This document shows, piece by piece, positions 1-6,024 of a DNA stretch of 8,594 bases. The notes under the pieces were generated by a model, which worked only from the letters and a program-made list of their open reading frames with translations, was not told where the DNA came from and ran no database searches. Made by a program: the position numbers and the translations under genes. The DNA is from a virus (lineage: Duplodnaviria; Heunggongvirae; Uroviricota; Caudoviricetes). The stretch lies in IMG/VR virus record IMGVR_UViG_2690316210_000003, positions 1 to 8,594 of that record; one strand, written 5' to 3'. Position 1 is the stretch's first letter; each line of letters begins with the position of its first letter.

Positions 1-986
1 GGAAAATCGATACTGGAAAAACTCTAACTCGGTGGCCAGTTTTTGTTGACCACTTCAACGCGAATATGTCACTGGCAACGTTCTATAACACTGTCTTAGG
101 CGAAACCTTCGATGATCTTAACGAAGACCGCACAGCCGACGAACTGGAAACGCTGAAAACTGATATTAGCCTAGACAATATTCCTGATGATGTATTGGCT
201 CTGGTAGGTGGAGTTGACCAGCAAAAAGACCGTCTGGAATCTACCTTGCTGGGTATTTCTCGTAAAGGGATATGTGTAGTTGATCACCGATCATTCTATG
301 ATGTGAACTGCGAACGCCACGAATCACTAGCATATAACCAGCTTTACAACTTCCTGAAAGCGAAATTCTATACCCGATCCGGTGAACGAATCCCGATGTT
401 ATCTGCTTTCGTGGACTCATCGAACGGACGAGCTACAAACGTGATCTATCGATTCTGTAGTCGGTGGCAAAATCTAACCGCCATTAAAGGCGCAAGCAAT
501 GTTGATGCTCCAATCCTTCCGGTAAAAGACACAAGAACGGGCGGTTTTACCCTTAAAATTCTGGGCGTAAACAACCTTAAAACGATGATCCGTGAAATGA
601 TTAACCGGAACTTGAGAGATGGCGATCCTCACACTGTCTTCCAGATTGGTGACGTTCCTGATGACTACTGCGAGCAATTGCTATCTGAACAGTTGAAACG
701 GCAGGGTAATACCACACGTTGGGTAAAAGTTGGACAAGCACGAAACGAGGCTCTCGACTGCCTGGCTTATTCCTATGCTGCTTCTCGTCATGTGCTCAAT
801 AAAATGTCATGGGAAAAACTCGAAGCCATCAAAGATAGTTTGAACCGCGAACCAGAAGAATCCGTAAAAGCTCCTGAAACGCAATCTGACGAGCAAATCG
901 AAGAAACTAAGCCAATCACACGACCACAACGTCAAAACATCGCCAGACGCCCAAATAGAGGCCGTAGCTGGGTAACATCGTTCTAA
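1..986 (+). CDS. Probable terminase large subunit, C-terminal portion (5'-partial; gene starts upstream of window)
   Basis: The frame of the listed 66..986 ORF is open from the first full codon (nt 3) to TAA at 984-986. ATG at 66 has no Shine-Dalgarno upstream (aacgcgaatATG), so it is probably an internal Met. Placement directly upstream of the portal candidate fits a packaging ATPase/nuclease; the C-terminal RNEALDCLAYSYAA segment resembles lambda gpA-like terminases from memory only. Confidence 0.55.
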   Translation, partial: KIDTGKTLTRWPVFVDHFNANMSLATFYNTVLGETFDDLNEDRTADELETLKTDISLDNIPDDVLALVGGVDQQKDRLESTLLGISRKGICVVDHRSFYDVNCERHESLAYNQLYNFLKAKFYTRSGERIPMLSAFVDSSNGRATNVIYRFCSRWQNLTAIKGASNVDAPILPVKDTRTGGFTLKILGVNNLKTMIREMINRNLRDGDPHTVFQIGDVPDDYCEQLLSEQLKRQGNTTRWVKVGQARNEALDCLAYSYAASRHVLNKMSWEKLEAIKDSLNREPEESVKAPETQSDEQIEETKPITRPQRQNIARRPNRGRSWVTSF

Positions 987-992
987 TAACTC

Positions 993-1010
993 GCCGTCCT
1001 TCGGGGCGGC
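993..1010 (+). promoter_or_regulatory. GC-rich RNA stem-loop with UUCG tetraloop, no U-tract
   Basis: gccgtcc-ttcg-ggggcggc forms a 7-bp stem (one G-U pair) closing a UUCG loop, 7 nt after the terminase stop; the following sequence (ttactcc) is not U-rich, so it is not a classical intrinsic terminator. Confidence 0.45.
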
Positions 1011-1022
1011 TTACTCCTAAAT

Positions 1023-1042
1023 ATTGTTAATCCAATAACAAT
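1023..1042. repeat. 7-bp inverted repeat ATTGTTA-N6-TAACAAT upstream of the 164-aa gene
   Basis: Perfect 7-bp arms with a 6-nt spacer, read directly from the sequence; AT-rich, so chance occurrence is not excluded. Confidence 0.3.
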
Positions 1043-1046
1043 TAAA

Positions 1047-1058
1047 TAAGGGGTAATT
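1047..1058 (+). promoter_or_regulatory. Ribosome-binding site (ATAAGGGGTAAT motif)
   Basis: AAGGGG core 5 nt upstream of ATG 1059; same extended motif recurs at 1549, 5304 and 6012. Confidence 0.7.
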
Positions 1059-1553
1059 ATGAGTTTAGAACTAATTCCCTTAGTAATTCGTAAAGGCGAA
1101 AAAATCACGCTGGCGAATGAAGAGGGTGTAACAATTCAGGTAGGAAATAGTAAAGGTATCATTTATCAGGTTGATGATTCTCCGGCTAATCACGAGATTA
1201 AAACTCTCTCATTCGAGATAGGTAAATATACCATCGTAATAACTTTGGAAGAAGAACTGGTATCAATGCAGGAATTAACTGTTTTGCCAGTATTCGCCAA
1301 ACAATCCAAAAAAGAATATCTGCGGGAAACTATCGCCTTAATCGAGCAAGTTATTTTCGCCCGTTTATCTGGGGACGAAGCCGCATTATCTCAAATGACC
1401 GTGAAAGGAAATACTTTCGCCTATGAGTCATTGGCTGTTCTCCAGACTCTAAAAGTCGATTATGAACGTCAACTGTCTAAATTAATTCAAGCCGAACGAC
1501 GTAAACAGGGAATTAGCCCGATTAAAAATATCAAATTACGTCTTACGCGATAA
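1059..1553 (+). CDS. Hypothetical protein (164 aa), unknown function
   Basis: ATG with strong upstream RBS; stop TAA 1551-1553 overlaps the RBS of the next gene. No motif I can recognise. Sits between terminase and portal, where lambda has W, but is much longer than W. Confidence 0.8.
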   Translation: MSLELIPLVIRKGEKITLANEEGVTIQVGNSKGIIYQVDDSPANHEIKTLSFEIGKYTIVITLEEELVSMQELTVLPVFAKQSKKEYLRETIALIEQVIFARLSGDEAALSQMTVKGNTFAYESLAVLQTLKVDYERQLSKLIQAERRKQGISPIKNIKLRLTR

Positions 1554-1563
1554 GGGGTAAATC
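1549..1563 (+). promoter_or_regulatory. Ribosome-binding site overlapping upstream stop codon (ATAAGGGGTAAATC)
   Basis: TAA stop of the 164-aa gene (1551-1553) is the first three bases of the TAAGGGG element; ATG 1564 follows 6 nt after GGGG. Confidence 0.7.
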
Positions 1564-3075
1564 ATGTTTAATCTTTTTCGACGCAAAAAGGCGGTAGAAA
1601 CTCCAGTTAAAACTAATCACCGCCAGCAACAACCAAAAATTTTCATCGATAAGCAAGTAGAAAAATTTCAGAAAGACCTGAATACACGTTCATTGGGATT
1701 AGTTGGTGATCGCATTGATGGATCGCTTCAACAAGATACTATCACAGGAACCTTCAATAAGGCTCTCAAATCGAACGGTAAGCGCCTTTATGATCAGGGT
1801 CGTACTCTGGCTATAAACAATGCTGTAGGCAAGCGATACAAGCAGTATATCGTTGACCAAGTTGTTGGTACGGGGCTTGATCCGAAACCATCAATCGTTA
1901 AATCAAATGGCAAACTTGACACCGCACTGAATAAGCAGATCGAGAATGCTTTCTGGAAGTGGGCGCAGAGTGCTAAACGCTTCTCTCGCAACGGTCGCTT
2001 TAACTTCCGTGAAATGCTGGCAATGGCAGAATCTGAACGTGTTCAGGGTGGAGAATGCTTCATCGTTTTAACCAAAGAGAACAATGAGTTACAAGTTTCT
2101 ATTCTGTCTGCTGATAGGTGCGACTGGTCGCTTAGTCGTGAAATAAGCAAAGAACGTGCGATCTATCAGGGGATTGAGTATGACGTAGACACAATGCGCC
2201 CTGTAGCATACTGGTTTAGAAAAATCAATCTACTGACTCAGACCTACACTGGCGAAAATTATCGCGTAGATGCTTCTCAGGTGTGCCACTACTACCAGCC
2301 ACTGTGCGCGGAAAGTTTACGTGGTGTGACTGACTTCCTGCCAGTGATTAAGGATATTGCGCATCAAGAAGCGTTCCGCGAAACCGCGATCGTCCAGAAA
2401 CGTATTGCAGCTAGCTCTATGGGCTTTATTGAACGTCCGAAAGATTCTGGTGACGATTTTGATACTGGTGAAGAGGATGAACAATATCAAGCGCCGGAAG
2501 TAGTACAGGACTTTGCACCGGGTACTATTCAGGAATTGCCGGAAGGGGCAACAATCAAGAGCATTCAATCATCGCAAAATGGCGATGACTTTAACAGCTT
2601 CAATGATGCGATGTTCACTAGCGTATCAATGGGCTTAGGCGTGTTCAAACAGGGCTTAACAGGAGATTGTTCACAGATCAACTACTCAGCCGCACGTTTT
2701 GGGGAACTAACCCAGCGTAACCGCATTAAAGCACTGCAAAACAAATTGATTGAAACAGTGGTATTGCCAATTTTTGAAGCATATCTACGCCATTATTCCG
2801 CGCGTGGTATTGTTCCGATTCGTATTACTGCAATTCCGCATATTATCGATAATACAACTATTATTCGTCCGCGTTTTGAATCCGTCGATCCTATTAAAGA
2901 CGTAAACGCCGAGATTGCTTTAATTCAAAATGGTCTTAAATCACGTACTGCCGTTATATTAGAACGTGGTGATGATCCTGAAAAAGTATTCTCAGAGATT
3001 CAAGCCGAAAAGAGCGCACTAAATATTATCGTTGATGGCGAGGGTGAAGAAAAAAATTCCCCAGCCGATCCCTAA
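1564..3075 (+). CDS. Probable portal protein (503 aa)
   Basis: Size typical of portals, position between terminase and protease/capsid, acidic C-terminal tail (DGEGEEKNSPADP). Assignment is by synteny and size, not a verified homology hit. Confidence 0.6.
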   Translation: MFNLFRRKKAVETPVKTNHRQQQPKIFIDKQVEKFQKDLNTRSLGLVGDRIDGSLQQDTITGTFNKALKSNGKRLYDQGRTLAINNAVGKRYKQYIVDQVVGTGLDPKPSIVKSNGKLDTALNKQIENAFWKWAQSAKRFSRNGRFNFREMLAMAESERVQGGECFIVLTKENNELQVSILSADRCDWSLSREISKERAIYQGIEYDVDTMRPVAYWFRKINLLTQTYTGENYRVDASQVCHYYQPLCAESLRGVTDFLPVIKDIAHQEAFRETAIVQKRIAASSMGFIERPKDSGDDFDTGEEDEQYQAPEVVQDFAPGTIQELPEGATIKSIQSSQNGDDFNSFNDAMFTSVSMGLGVFKQGLTGDCSQINYSAARFGELTQRNRIKALQNKLIETVVLPIFEAYLRHYSARGIVPIRITAIPHIIDNTTIIRPRFESVDPIKDVNAEIALIQNGLKSRTAVILERGDDPEKVFSEIQAEKSALNIIVDGEGEEKNSPADP

Positions 3076-3083
3076 TAACCAAC

Positions 3084-3100
3084 GGGGGCGCAATGCCCCC
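3084..3100 (+). promoter_or_regulatory. GC-rich stem-loop (GGGGGC/GCCCCC), no U-tract
   Basis: gggggc-gcaat-gccccc, 6-bp G:C stem 8 nt after the portal stop and 20 nt before ATG 3121; followed by aattaatt rather than a T-run. Confidence 0.45.
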
Positions 3101-3108
3101 AATTAATT

Positions 3109-3120
3109 AAAGGTGATTAA
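3109..3120 (+). promoter_or_regulatory. Ribosome-binding site (AAAGGTGATTAA)
   Basis: AGGTGA 4 nt upstream of ATG 3121. Confidence 0.65.
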
Positions 3121-3630
3121 ATGCTTAAATTTCGCCGCGAACTTAACGGTTACGGTGGAGTTATTAACGAAGGGCATACTGATCAATACGAATTTGAAAT
3201 TGCTTTCTCCAGTGAACAGCCTTATCAGCGCCAATTCTGGGATGAGCAAAATCAAGAAATGGTGGTATTAGATGAAATTCTGGTACATACACCGGAAGCG
3301 GTTGATCTGTCTCGTCTGAATAATAACGCTCCGTTGCTGTTTAATCATAATTTCGATAATCATTTAGGTGTCGTTTGTAACGCTCGAATCGATGCGGATA
3401 AAGTAGGCCGTGCGACCGTTAGATTCTCTAAGCATGGCACTTTGGCTAATGATATTCGTAATAAAGTCATTGAAGGTACGATGGAAAAAATTTCTGTCGG
3501 CTATGACATTAAAGAATATCACATCGATTATGCCAAAGGACAATTGATTGTTACTAAGTTTGTTCCTTTCGAATTAAGTTTTGTTACGGTCCCGGCGGAC
3601 GATTCGGTCGGTTTAAATCGCTCTCTAAAT
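3121..3630 (+). other. HK97-type prohead protease domain (approximate bounds)
   Basis: Candidate catalytic His76 and Ser125 are 49 residues apart; I recall the same spacing for HK97 gp4 (His65/Ser114), unverified. Confidence 0.5.
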
Positions 3631-5124
3631 ACTATCACAGTTAATTTGGAGGCTAAACGCGATATGACTAAAGAACAAATTGAAGAAATCAAAGAAGAAC
3701 AAGAATCCGCTCAGGTTGAAGAAACTCCGGTAGAAGAAATTAAAGAATCGGAAGTTGAAGAAACTCAAGAGCGCCAAGTTGAAGAGAATAAAGAAGATGA
3801 AAATCTCGAAGACGGAAAAGACGCTGAACATCCTGAAAGTGTTGATGATGATAGTTCAACTGTTCGGGAAACAGAAGAAGTAAAAGAAGAACGTGAAGCT
3901 GCTCCGGTTGAAGAAGAAAAAACCGAGGAAGTGGCTGAACGTTCCGAAGAAGACGAATTAGAAATCCGCGAAATTGCACGCGAGCTAAATATTAACGACG
4001 AAGAATTAGAACGCGCATTGGCAGTTAAAGACATGACGCCGGAAGCATTCCGCACTAAGGCACTAAATAACATTACCAATGCTCAACGTATTAACGAACA
4101 ACAAATTAAGGACTCTAAAATGGAAAAAACTTTTGACCTGAACAACGTAATTCGCTCTCTGGTAGATGGTGAAGCTCTGGGTGCTCACGAAGCCGAGTTT
4201 TCTGCAATGGCTGCTACTGCAACTATGCAGCGTGGTCGTGCTGCTCGTGGTGGCTCTGTATTCGTTCCGGCTGCTGCTATGCGTGCTGCTGCTGCTGGTA
4301 ACACCAAAGCTGACCTGACTGCTATCACTGACGAAAAACTGATGACTGAATCCTACATCGAAATGCTGATGCCGGAATCCGTTCTGGGTCGTCTGGGTGT
4401 GACTGTTTATAGTGGCTTGACTGCTCCGACCGCTATTCCAAAAATGACTAAATCCAGCGTTGACGCTTTCGGCTTCGTTGATGAAAACGGTGCTGCACCG
4501 GAAGGCAAAGCTGAATTTGCAAACGTGAAACTGTCTCCTAAGACTTTTGCTGGTGGGAACCCGATCAGCCGCCAGAGCATCAAAACCGTACCGGGCATCG
4601 CTACCCTGATCACTGATCACATCAACCAGGCTGTTCGCATCAAACTGGAACAACTGATTCTGTCTGACAAAGCTAACGATCGTGGTCCGGCTGGTCTGGT
4701 TAAACAACTGGTAGACGCTAGCCGCGTTGAGAAGAAAGCTGCTTTCACCTACAAAGACTTCCTGAAAGAAATTGCTAAACTGACCGACGCTGGCGTTCCG
4801 GCACAGTCCATCAAGTTTGCAATGAGCGGTGCAACTGCTGCTGAACTGGAATCTACCCTGAAAGATAACGGCGTTTCTGGTTATATCATCGAAAACGGCA
4901 AACTGGCTGGTTACGAAGTAGTTACTTCTGGTGTTATTCCGGCAGACCACATCGTTCTGGGTGACTTCTCCGGTATTACTATCGGTGAGTGGGGCGGTCT
5001 GGAACTGGATATGGACGACACCACCTACCGCGCACAGTCCGCTATCGTTCCGCGTATCTGGGTAGATCTGGATTATGTAGTTACCCAGCCGGAAGCTCTG
5101 AAAGTTCTTCACGTCTCCGAATGA
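3121..5124 (+). CDS. Prohead protease - scaffold-like acidic segment - major capsid protein fusion ORF (667 aa)
   Basis: Single uninterrupted ORF. The N-terminal ~170 aa carry HK97-type prohead protease (S78/U35-like) motifs as I remember them: LLFNHNFDNHLG (His76), KISVGYDI (Ser125), ELSFVTVPADD. Residues ~182-333 are Glu-rich and low-complexity, like a scaffold/delta domain. Residues 334-667 are Ala/Gly-rich with strongly optimised codons, typical of a major capsid protein. Confidence 0.75.
   Translation: MLKFRRELNGYGGVINEGHTDQYEFEIAFSSEQPYQRQFWDEQNQEMVVLDEILVHTPEAVDLSRLNNNAPLLFNHNFDNHLGVVCNARIDADKVGRATVRFSKHGTLANDIRNKVIEGTMEKISVGYDIKEYHIDYAKGQLIVTKFVPFELSFVTVPADDSVGLNRSLNTITVNLEAKRDMTKEQIEEIKEEQESAQVEETPVEEIKESEVEETQERQVEENKEDENLEDGKDAEHPESVDDDSSTVRETEEVKEEREAAPVEEEKTEEVAERSEEDELEIREIARELNINDEELERALAVKDMTPEAFRTKALNNITNAQRINEQQIKDSKMEKTFDLNNVIRSLVDGEALGAHEAEFSAMAATATMQRGRAARGGSVFVPAAAMRAAAAGNTKADLTAITDEKLMTESYIEMLMPESVLGRLGVTVYSGLTAPTAIPKMTKSSVDAFGFVDENGAAPEGKAEFANVKLSPKTFAGGNPISRQSIKTVPGIATLITDHINQAVRIKLEQLILSDKANDRGPAGLVKQLVDASRVEKKAAFTYKDFLKEIAKLTDAGVPAQSIKFAMSGATAAELESTLKDNGVSGYIIENGKLAGYEVVTSGVIPADHIVLGDFSGITIGEWGGLELDMDDTTYRAQSAIVPRIWVDLDYVVTQPEALKVLHVSE
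3664..4119 (+). other. Glu-rich scaffold/delta-like segment with in-frame internal ATG at 3664
   Basis: About 150 residues dominated by E/K/V with 39-bp periodic GTTGAAGAA(ACT) repeats (3715, 3754, 3778); GGAGG at 3648-3652 lies 11 nt upstream of the in-frame ATG 3664. Confidence 0.45.
4120..5124 (+). other. Major capsid protein domain (HK97-fold candidate) with in-frame internal ATG at 4120
   Basis: AAGGA at 4108-4112 lies 7 nt upstream of ATG 4120 (MEKTFDL...). From here to the stop, Leu is almost exclusively CTG and Arg CGT, with Gly GGT and Ala GCT favoured, unlike the upstream part of the same ORF. Confidence 0.6.
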
Positions 5125-5146
5125 ACTAGCTTAGAACCTTCTGAAC

Positions 5147-5167
5147 CTTCCCCCGATTTGGGGGAAG
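5147..5167 (+). promoter_or_regulatory. Perfect 8-bp stem-loop (CTTCCCCC-gattt-GGGGGAAG) 22 nt downstream of the capsid stop
   Basis: Read directly; followed by purine-rich sequence, no U-tract. Confidence 0.5.
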
Positions 5168-5261
5168 AAAATCTGATTCCATCTCAGGAAGAAGAAGTTC
5201 AAGAGGTTACGGCGAAAGCCACAGTTAAAAAAGAACGTAAGACTAAAGCAAAATAATAATT

Positions 5262-5288
5262 AGCCCTGCCTAACGGTGGGGCTTTTTT
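5262..5288 (+). terminator. Rho-independent terminator after the capsid gene
   Basis: agccctgcc-taac-ggtggggct forms a 9-bp stem (two G-U pairs) followed immediately by TTTTT(T); located after the TAATAA double stop. Confidence 0.7.
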
Positions 5289-5303
5289 GTATGTAAATAC
5301 TCC

Positions 5304-5318
5304 ATAAAGGGGGTAACT
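5304..5318 (+). promoter_or_regulatory. Ribosome-binding site (ATAAAGGGGGTAACT)
   Basis: GGGGG 5 nt upstream of ATG 5319; begins only ~15 nt after the terminator U-tract. Confidence 0.7.
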
Positions 5319-5609
5319 ATGTTCAAATTATCAGAATCACAATTATCAAGAATGTTTAAGAGTGCTCCTGTATTTGTGGTGGAAGGTGGTAAATCAATTC
5401 GTGCTTACCATGAAATTACTACTACCGACGAACAAGGGGTAATTACAGAATCAGAATTTCTATTTTGTCGTGAGGGAGACTTAAATCAGGGTGATGTTGT
5501 CATTGTAGACGGTGAACGCTTCAAAGTTCAATACGTTAAGCGCAATGGTGATAATACTTCTGATTGCTTTATTGCTCGTGCAGGGGGTACACATGCTCGC
5601 TACCGTTAA
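5319..5609 (+). CDS. Small virion protein (96 aa), possible head-tail adaptor/head-closure protein
   Basis: Strong RBS; the C-terminal GDVVIVDGERFKVQYV segment resembles the end of head-tail joining proteins as I recall them. Position is immediately downstream of the capsid gene. Function tentative. Confidence 0.75.
   Translation: MFKLSESQLSRMFKSAPVFVVEGGKSIRAYHEITTTDEQGVITESEFLFCREGDLNQGDVVIVDGERFKVQYVKRNGDNTSDCFIARAGGTHARYR
5582..5592 (+). promoter_or_regulatory. Ribosome-binding site embedded in the 3' coding end of the 96-aa gene (AGGGGGTACAC)
   Basis: GGGGGTA + 3 nt + ATG 5593, same geometry as the RBSs at 1059, 5319 and 6025. Confidence 0.6.
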
Positions 5610-6015
5610 TAATATGCCGAGACTGAAAATCAAACGCGCCTTGCAAGATATTATCGAACAAGATTTAGGTCTGGCTTTAAACGTAGAACAAACTCAGCAA
5701 GGCTTTAGTGATGACGTGGTTTGTTGGATTACTGGCATGAATGAAACTTATACGCGTGTTCGTGGTGGTAATGCAATGCAAGCTGAATGCGTTATCGAAA
5801 TGCAGTTGTATTCTCAGAATCATGAAACAAAAATCCATGAGGGTATTTGCCAGATAATCCAGATTCAGCCGGATAACCCACGATTTAAAGATTTGGGCTT
5901 CTCTATTTCAGATATCACTCCAGTAGCTTCTAATACCGATTATGACGATGATTCTAGTGATGGGGGTATCGTTGGGACACTTAGCCTTAAATTTTCTTAT
6001 CTAGCGCGTTTTTAA
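5593..6015 (+). CDS. Hypothetical structural protein (141 aa from ATG 5593), possible connector/tail-completion protein
   Basis: Same frame as the listed 5512..6015 ORF, but 5512 is a GTG with no RBS inside the upstream gene; ATG 5593 has the conserved RBS. Overlaps the upstream gene by 17 nt. ATG 5614 is an alternative start without a recognisable RBS. Confidence 0.7.
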   Translation: MLATVNNMPRLKIKRALQDIIEQDLGLALNVEQTQQGFSDDVVCWITGMNETYTRVRGGNAMQAECVIEMQLYSQNHETKIHEGICQIIQIQPDNPRFKDLGFSISDITPVASNTDYDDDSSDGGIVGTLSLKFSYLARF

Positions 6016-6024
6016 GGGGTAATA
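6012..6024 (+). promoter_or_regulatory. Ribosome-binding site overlapping upstream stop (TTAAGGGGTAATA)
   Basis: TAA stop 6013-6015 forms the start of TAAGGGG; ATG 6025 lies 5 nt after GGGG. Confidence 0.7.

Follow-up and report, generated by a model that had tools for sequence, protein, structure and literature searches.

Whether a single reading frame that encodes a head protease, a scaffold-like segment and a major capsid protein is translated as one protein or as several is the question raised by the locus considered here. The locus lies in a window of 8,594 nt, which is the whole stretch of DNA analyzed (positions 1–8,594 of the IMG/VR record IMGVR_UViG_2690316210_000003, Caudoviricetes) and covers the head-gene block of an uncharacterised siphovirus-like Escherichia coli prophage. 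In the window, the C-terminus of a lambda-type large terminase, an open reading frame (ORF) of 164 amino acids (aa) and a lambda-family portal gene are followed by ORF 3121–5124 (+ strand, 667 codons and a stop codon, 73.7 kDa), and 3′ of it lie small head–tail genes and then a tail-fibre gene. According to the ORF list and Pfam, ORF 3121–5124 is a protease–scaffold–major capsid protein fusion, uninterrupted by stops, with an S78 protease, a scaffold-like segment and a capsid domain in one frame. Its sequence features suggest that it comprises three nested genes with a common frame and a common C-terminus: the use of at least one internal start is considered very likely, and the full three-product model is considered likely.

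Candidate internal start sites and the codon-usage step

Two internal starts had been proposed in the initial annotation, and both motifs, GGAGG-N11-ATG 3664 and AAGGA-N7-ATG 4120, are read directly from the sequence of the + strand and are in frame with ATG 3121; the sizes predicted there for the three products, 667, 486 and 334 aa, were likewise confirmed (73.7, 53.1 and 35.4 kDa). The first candidate, Met182 (codon 182, 3664–3666), stands 11 nt downstream of the Shine–Dalgarno (SD) sequence GGAGG (3648–3652), whose duplex energy with the 3′ end of 16S rRNA (−9.3 kcal/mol) was the strongest in the ORF and ranked in the top 1–2% among the 392 start-like triplets of the + strand of the window. 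The second candidate, Met334 (codon 334, 4120–4122), is preceded at 7 nt by TAAGGA (4107–4112, with AAGGA at 4108–4112), which at its ideal spacer of 6–7 nt had an energy of −5.8 kcal/mol and exceeded the weak SD AAGGTGA (3111–3117, −4.3 kcal/mol) of the annotated start ATG 3121. SD strength alone is not convincing as evidence for internal starts, and chance was excluded by it only partly. An in-frame ATG at 5011–5013, for example, has an SD-like string of −7.1 kcal/mol with an 11-nt spacer and lies in structured RNA (24th percentile of openness); this ATG was rejected as a decoy, since the string arises from the conserved capsid motif WGGLELDM, and it warns against relying on SD scans alone. 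The same motif-derived string was also found in some other family members and in Escherichia phage DCP80, the closest phage record (PQ671644.1, L001, 1-13765; 44% aa identity).

The accessibility of the mRNA was evaluated by RNAplfold-type local folding of the 25-nt stretch from −18 to +6 of each start. ATG 4120, ATG 3664 and ATG 3121 were placed in the 97th, 85th and 84th percentiles of openness, respectively, most other in-frame ATGs falling in the 3rd–35th, and the most open 75-nt bins of the ORF (3625–3700 and 4075–4150) coincided with the two internal candidates. Four further open in-frame ATGs, 3481 (70th percentile), 4363 (80th), 4342 (92nd) and 4444 (94th), had no usable SD (scores of about 0 for 4342, 4363 and 4444, and −3.9 with a 2-nt spacer for 3481); ATG 4033 (codon 305; SD −2.1, 32nd percentile) was rejected as a start.

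A further indication of internal initiation comes from codon usage. The codon adaptation index (CAI), calculated without Glu and Lys codons, was 0.26 for codons 1–181, 0.31 for codons 182–333 and 0.74 for codons 334–667; the first 333 codons resemble the other genes of the window (CAI 0.26–0.34), and the acidic scaffold segment reaches 0.45 when all codons are counted. The nested ORF 4120–5124 (+ strand, 334 codons; CAI 0.74–0.75) is strongly optimised for E. coli and carries the signature of highly expressed, ribosomal-protein-like genes of this species: CTG encodes 25 of 27 Leu residues, GGT/GGC 28 of 29 Gly, ACT/ACC 24 of 24 Thr, CGT/CGC 12 of 12 Arg and GCT 35 of 45 Ala. The least-squares breakpoint of the CAI, which rises there from 0.28 to 0.74, was located at codon 331, and a two-segment multinomial test, which needs no external weights and was applied to the window only, peaked at the same codon with a log-likelihood ratio (lnLR) of 69.8 and a support interval of codons 321–340 (permutation null 28.8 ± 3.3, maximum 38.2). 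In a set of 15 E. coli prophage alleles of the ORF, which are 89–95% identical and most divergent in the capsid part, the breakpoint fell from −16 to +8 codons of Met334 in all 15. If there were a single start, all ribosomes reading the capsid part would also read codons 1–333, so that no part of the ORF would be under stronger selection for efficient codons than another; the rise seen in the downstream part argues for extra initiation there.

Breakpoints in related genes point in the same direction. In four enteric relatives without an SD-preceded ATG at the second position, the breakpoint was found at the SD-preceded ATG just after the protease domain, namely, at codon 182 versus ATG 180 in DCP80, 224 versus 215 in Arya, 220 versus 216 in ECO1230-10 and 233 versus 217 in PT1; a further rise occurred in DCP80 at a second SD-preceded ATG of its own (CAI 0.26, 0.51 and 0.66 in the successive segments). 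As a control, the C/Nu3 gene pair of phage lambda was analyzed, in which the CAI was 0.40 for the nested Nu3 and 0.29 for the upstream part of C (0.43–0.45 for D and E).

Domains and predicted products

The N-terminal part of the fusion protein is a prohead protease domain (aa 21–165, 3181–3615, + strand), in which PF04586 (Peptidase_S78) was matched at aa 40–162 with 41.6 bits (cut-off 21) and which was modelled with a predicted local distance difference test (pLDDT) score of about 90–98 by AlphaFold2, the model of the fusion protein being built on 50 diverse homologues. His76 and Ser125, the putative catalytic residues, were invariant in 89 of 89 family members, and their spacing of 49 residues equals that of H65 and S114 in HK97 gp4. 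The protease is followed by an acidic linker (aa 169–271, 3625–3933, + strand) that is encoded by GAA-rich DNA and predicted to be disordered (pLDDT < 50 over most of it), and further by a helical pro-domain (aa 272–392, 3934–4296, + strand; block-mean pLDDT 79–96) that is delta-domain- or scaffold-like and, according to the family alignment, conserved across the family. In total, aa 182–333 contain 55 Asp and Glu versus 20 Lys and Arg residues, and Met334 stands at the end of a long predicted helix (aa 307–336) of the pro-domain.

A flexible segment (aa 394–408, 4300–4344, + strand), delimited by pLDDT < 50 and by the alignment with 8GTA_A, separates the pro-domain from the HK97-fold capsid domain (aa 409–667, 4345–5121, + strand). 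The latter was identified by PF05065 (Phage_capsid; aa 410–663, 89.5 bits, cut-off 24.2), by a phmmer match to the R4C capsid 8GTA_A (E = 3.5e-24) and by Foldseek, in which the top matches of the AlphaFold2 model were the capsid proteins of R4C (8gta), D3, gene transfer agent (GTA) and HK97 with a probability of 1.00, the roseophage R4C capsid 8gta being the best structural match. In the deposited R4C chain 8GTA_A (268 aa), residue 11 onward aligned to aa 409–661 of the window protein. Since residue 11 pairs with aa 409, by analogy the mature capsid protein (~29 kDa) probably begins near aa 399, and the maturation cleavage site probably lies within the flexible segment.

From these data, we infer the following scheme of initiation, amounts, assembly and cleavage. 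Translation from ATG 3121, with its weak SD behind a GC-rich hairpin, would yield a rare 74-kDa protease–scaffold–capsid protein; de novo binding of ribosomes at GGAGG/ATG 3664 would yield a modest amount of a 53-kDa scaffold–capsid protein of 486 aa; and TAAGGA/ATG 4120, where the mRNA is most open, would yield the bulk product of 334 aa, which consists of a short helical pro-peptide and the HK97-fold domain. The three products would co-assemble via their common capsid domain, so that the procapsid would receive its protease and full scaffold from the few long forms; there, the S78 protease would trim everything N-terminal of approximately residue 399 and leave the mature capsid protein. Judging from the motifs and codon usage, the 35-kDa product of ATG 4120 is most likely the bulk capsid precursor in the window phage, whereas initiation at ATG 3664 is probably real but minor, as codon usage does not rise there. 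It should be noted that the product of ATG 4120 had been described in the initial annotation as the capsid domain alone, which does not hold, because it still contains part of the helical pro-domain, about 60 residues in all (aa 334–392). Because Lys333 precedes Met334, the tryptic peptide MEKTFDLNNVIR would also be released from the full-length protein.

Conservation in the family and rival explanations

The same protease–linker–capsid layout was found in 88 non-redundant fusion genes (80 IMG/VR loci and phage records), which were anchored on the invariant Arg167, and at least 545 relatives were present in IMG/VR. A megablast search of ORF 3121–5124 against phage records gave no match, relatives among these records being reached only by tblastn, and the entries obtained by a word-indexed protein search were all close E. 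coli ones, most of them partial. An in-frame ATG was located 5–50 residues after Arg167, i.e., at the junction of the protease and the linker, in 87 of the 88 genes, yet this segment is unalignable across the family and predicted to be disordered. The junction ATG was preceded by an SD (≤ −5 kcal/mol, spacer 3–13) in 52/88 genes, compared with 3–15/88 in seven in-frame control windows of equal size, 12 and 0 in the two other frames, and only 6/88 in the second acidic control window, +51..+96. Breakpoints of codon usage calculated with host-agnostic weights, i.e., those derived from the capsid core of each gene, clustered from −5 to +24 codons of the junction ATG (28/81), and a minor second cluster lay close to the capsid-proximal helix; this noisy method, which misplaces the breakpoint of the window itself because Glu and Lys codons are left in, was used only as a population-level histogram.

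In the E. coli alleles that share the protease module of the window, GGAGG before ATG 3664 was retained in 10/12 and replaced by GGGGG in 2/12, while the three alleles with another protease module carry GGAG-N8-GTG in frame two codons downstream. A mosaic junction was mapped to approximately position 3673 (alignment A1, loci L013-L015), where the protease modules of these three alleles are only about 50% identical and near-identity begins after the junction; its location three codons past ATG 3664 fits a gene boundary. Around this site, positions 3601–3960 showed a third-position diversity of 0.00–0.05 versus 0.12–0.42 elsewhere in the ORF (15 alleles), equal to that of first and second positions; the stretch, which is GAA-rich, predicted to be unstructured and situated between the two candidate starts, may owe its conservation to a shared module that was recently swept or gene-converted, or to an RNA-level constraint.

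ATG 4120 was invariant in 15/15 E. coli alleles, and TAAGGA-N7 was kept in the three upstream haplotypes of these alleles, which encode IKDSK, NKEQI and NKEKN. In a clade of about 30% identity (IMG/VR L029, L030, L031, L033, L037, L047 and L055), the equivalent position, immediately upstream of the conserved helix EKxxxLNxxIRSL, is occupied by the motif GATAAGGAAATCAAA-ATG-GAAAAA. The Lys codon within the second SD was AAG in 11/11 non-redundant sequences, and upstream AAA outnumbers AAG 2–6:1. In DCP80 and in a Salmonella prophage, AAGGA stands 9–10 nt before an ATG located 9–13 codons upstream of the same helix, and in the latter, optimal codons begin at that ATG.

Relatives with split or shorter genes bear on the origin of these sites. 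In a split relative, an S78 protease gene (193 aa) and a gene for the pro-domain and capsid (436 aa) are separated by 46 nt. Among the best 150 representatives of 50%-identity clusters, most were fusions of 600–690 aa, some were pro-domain–capsid proteins of 394–445 aa, and a few were proteins of 345–375 aa that begin 10–20 residues before the equivalent of Met334. By comparison of these sequences, the internal starts look like retained starts of genes that were formerly, or are elsewhere, separate. For most family members, the junction ATG is probably where translation of the bulk product begins, which would then resemble HK97 gp5 and its delta domain; in the window lineage, the main start seems to have been shifted into the pro-domain, 152 codons further downstream.

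Public gene calls for the homologous ORF were discordant. The Prokaryotic Genome Annotation Pipeline (PGAP) gives a single coding sequence (CDS) in 14 E. coli genomes (666–671 aa), and other pipelines have entries of 486–491 aa, the inconsistent calls involving database entries P0003, P0004, P0001, P0005 and P0011. The 486-aa entry P0003 begins exactly at the equivalent of Met182, and the 491-aa entry P0004 has an unrelated N-terminus and matches the family sequence only from about 10 residues past Met182. These entries and the 335-aa entry P0006 were rejected as independent proof of internal starts, since the 486-aa entries show only that some gene callers favour a stronger internal ribosome-binding site, and P0006 begins 20 nt from a contig end.

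Thus, the nested in-frame initiation postulated in the initial annotation is supported by the codon step, the openness of the mRNA and the conservation of the SD and ATG, and all computational tests capable of contradicting it were in agreement with it. Several points weigh against it, and the support comes from sequence analysis throughout. The spacer before ATG 3664 (10–11 nt) is above the optimum, and codon usage in the window phage shows no rise at this site (0.26 to 0.31); the SD before ATG 4120 is only moderate, in the top 7–11% of the 392 start-like triplets. In the structural model, Met334 is placed within a helix and not at the boundary of a domain, which makes it doubtful that a capsid precursor with half a pro-domain would assemble. 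The junction ATG had no recognisable SD in 36/88 family genes, and relatedness among the family sequences makes the counts less than fully independent. The CAI depends on external (Sharp–Li) weights, a dependence that the multinomial test removes for the window only, and in the lambda control, the direction of the step was right and the breakpoint imprecise (p = 0.09), the codon bias of lambda being too weak to place it precisely.

Three other explanations were weighed against the nested-start model. A single polyprotein made from ATG 3121 only, with self-trimmed 74-kDa precursors and with the SD-preceded ATGs and the codon step as by-products of composition and mosaicism, would agree with the single CDS of all annotation pipelines, with the treatment of such genes in the literature as simple fusions and with the mosaic nature of the gene; moreover, purine-rich acidic linkers readily yield SD-like strings, as the decoy at 5011 illustrates. 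Nevertheless, it fails to explain the step of the CAI to 0.74 at an SD-preceded ATG in 15/15 alleles, the steps at the other SD-preceded ATG in four relatives, the junction ATG retained within a non-conserved disordered linker in 87/88 genes, the rarer AAG Lys codon at 11/11 second SD sites and the peaks of accessibility, and the second acidic control window has an SD-preceded ATG in only 6/88 genes; this explanation is considered very improbable. It is also unlikely that the excess of capsid protein alone arises mainly at the RNA level, from an internal promoter or from processing with differential 3′ stability, with ATG 4120 as the first good start on a shorter RNA. Hairpins after the ORF (5147–5167 and 5262–5283) could stabilise the 3′ part, and the conserved purine-rich stretch 3601–3960 is otherwise unaccounted for; however, the promoter scan gave no sigma-70-like match between 3531 and 4120, with an overall count no higher than in shuffled sequences, and late phage operons usually give a single, continuous transcript. 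Such an explanation would still need ATG 4120 as a start, and it modifies the nested-start model without replacing it.

The remaining explanation, according to which only ATG 4120 works in the window phage, ATG 3664 is a relic of an ancestral start of the pro-domain and capsid, and the scaffold enters the procapsid only within the full-length protein, appears doubtful. The flat codon usage at codon 182, as opposed to the rise in DCP80 and the Jilinviruses, the spacer of 11 nt versus 5–7 nt in relatives, and the replacement of GGAGG by GGGGG in two alleles would be expected of a relic. Against this, the SD surpasses all others in the ORF in strength (−9.3) and is located in open RNA, 12 of the 12 alleles that have this protease module retain it, the other module carries GGAG-N8-GTG instead, and the surrounding 360 nt are unusually conserved at the nucleotide level; in addition, the CAI has low power in this region, since it consists mostly of Glu and Lys codons that are already optimal. 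The model with three products, including a minor one from ATG 3664, is preferred.

Flanking elements, known systems and implications

A GC-rich hairpin, GGGGGC-GCAAT-GCCCCC (3084–3100, + strand), is located between the portal stop codon (3073–3075) and the SD of the fusion gene and was invariant in 15/15 alleles, even when both flanks were different; it might limit initiation at ATG 3121 or mark a site of RNA processing or stability. The capsid ORF is followed by a non-coding gap of 194 nt (5125–5318) with two hairpins on the + strand, CTTCCCCC-GATTT-GGGGGAAG (5147–5167), read from the sequence, and a terminator-like stem followed by TTTTTTG (5262–5283), also found by the terminator scan. These hairpins may stabilise the 3′ end of the mRNA; a terminator or an RNA stabiliser inside a late operon is unusual. 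No family was found in the Rfam search.

Downstream of the gap, the listed ORFs 5319–5609 and 5512–6015 overlap by about 100 nt. Their RefSeq homologues, the second of which has 140 aa, share just 17 nt (L105 21214-21504 and 21488-21910); accordingly, the second gene of the window probably begins near 5593, not at GTG 5512. A very large tail-fibre gene (approximately 6930–8594; L105 22830-26441), with Gp34_trimer and Peptidase_S74 domains in L023, separates the head genes from the tail-tube gene. Of 5426 complete E. coli genomes, 4370 contain DNA that matches parts of this gene, and these widespread parts account for the 5697 records matched by the whole-window search. The minus-strand ORFs 7066–7689 and 7976–8467 are probably shadows of the tail-fibre gene. 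As for DCP80, its genome of 141 kb is classified as Straboviridae/Gaprivervirus; its left end has the terminase, the portal and the protease–capsid fusion in a window-like order, with nearly all products there labelled hypothetical, and it may be a chimeric assembly or a record with mis-assigned taxonomy.

Among known systems, phage Mu (genes I/Z) translates its scaffold from an internal start that lies in frame inside its protease gene. The window ORF resembles lambda C/Nu3 in that a head-protease ORF contains a nested in-frame start, the products have a common C-terminus, the ratio of a rare protease to an abundant assembly protein would be determined by how strong the starts are, and the nested part has a higher CAI. 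It differs in having two nested starts. Lambda and Mu both make only a scaffold from the nested start and have a separate capsid gene, and their protease is of the S49 or ClpP-like type, whereas in the window, the shared C-terminus is the capsid protein itself and the protease is S78 (HK97 type). The analogy with lambda C/Nu3 drawn in the initial annotation is thus justified for the principle of nested starts and not for homology, the S78 protease being distinct from the S49 protease of lambda. For lambda C/Nu3, the nested in-frame start has been proven experimentally (Shaw & Murialdo 1980, as cited in PMC8508860).

With HK97 gp4 and gp5, the window protein shares the protease family, the capsid fold and an N-terminal helical pro-domain that is removed at maturation, and the gp4/gp5 layout is matched by the split relative described above. 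In contrast to HK97, the window genes have no intervening stop, so that the fusion is also made, and the window lineage has an extra start further downstream. The HK97 protease is targeted to the procapsid by a C-terminal targeting peptide, whereas covalent linkage would be used in the window phage. The same fusion architecture occurs in Arthrobacter phages of clusters AM, AU and AN, Microbacterium EE, Rhodobacter RcC, Pseudomonas MD8 (in which the protease differs in being of the ClpP type), Jilinvirus, Cronusvirus/R4C and phiHAP-1, and the window protein is homologous (27–44% identity) to the Jilinvirus, Cronusvirus, R4C, phiHAP-1 and FoX proteins. The published descriptions consulted on the Arthrobacter, Microbacterium, Rhodobacter and Pseudomonas fusions treat them as an unusual feature with internal starts unmentioned, although these may have been assumed informally or published elsewhere; the N-terminal 361 residues are undiscussed in the literature on the R4C structure.

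A further parallel is offered by the Gag/Gag-Pol strategy of retroviruses and totiviruses, in which a minority of capsid subunits carry an enzyme covalently, enter the particle via the shared capsid domain and have their stoichiometry set at translation. The window enzyme differs in being N-terminal and in depending on alternative initiation, not on frameshifting or readthrough, and the parallel is one of analogy, with no homology. We lean slightly towards the view that a comparable strategy operates in many fusion-gene phages, with the bulk capsid precursor made from a conserved internal start, a minority of subunits carrying the covalent protease and, in the window lineage, a second scaffold tier.

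If this is true, competition between initiation sites of a single mRNA would alone govern the incorporation and stoichiometry of the protease, with a third tier in the window lineage owing to the downstream-shifted main start, and the annotation of at least 545 IMG/VR relatives would show one protein in place of two or three. It would explain how a T=7 shell (~415 subunits) avoids containing ~415 proteases and would reveal a covalent packaging route for the maturation protease, unlike the targeting peptide of HK97. An intragenic step in codon adaptation can, moreover, locate nested starts without experiments. For the biology of E. coli prophages and for capsid engineering, the 35-kDa product, not the 74-kDa ORF, would be the likely unit to express.

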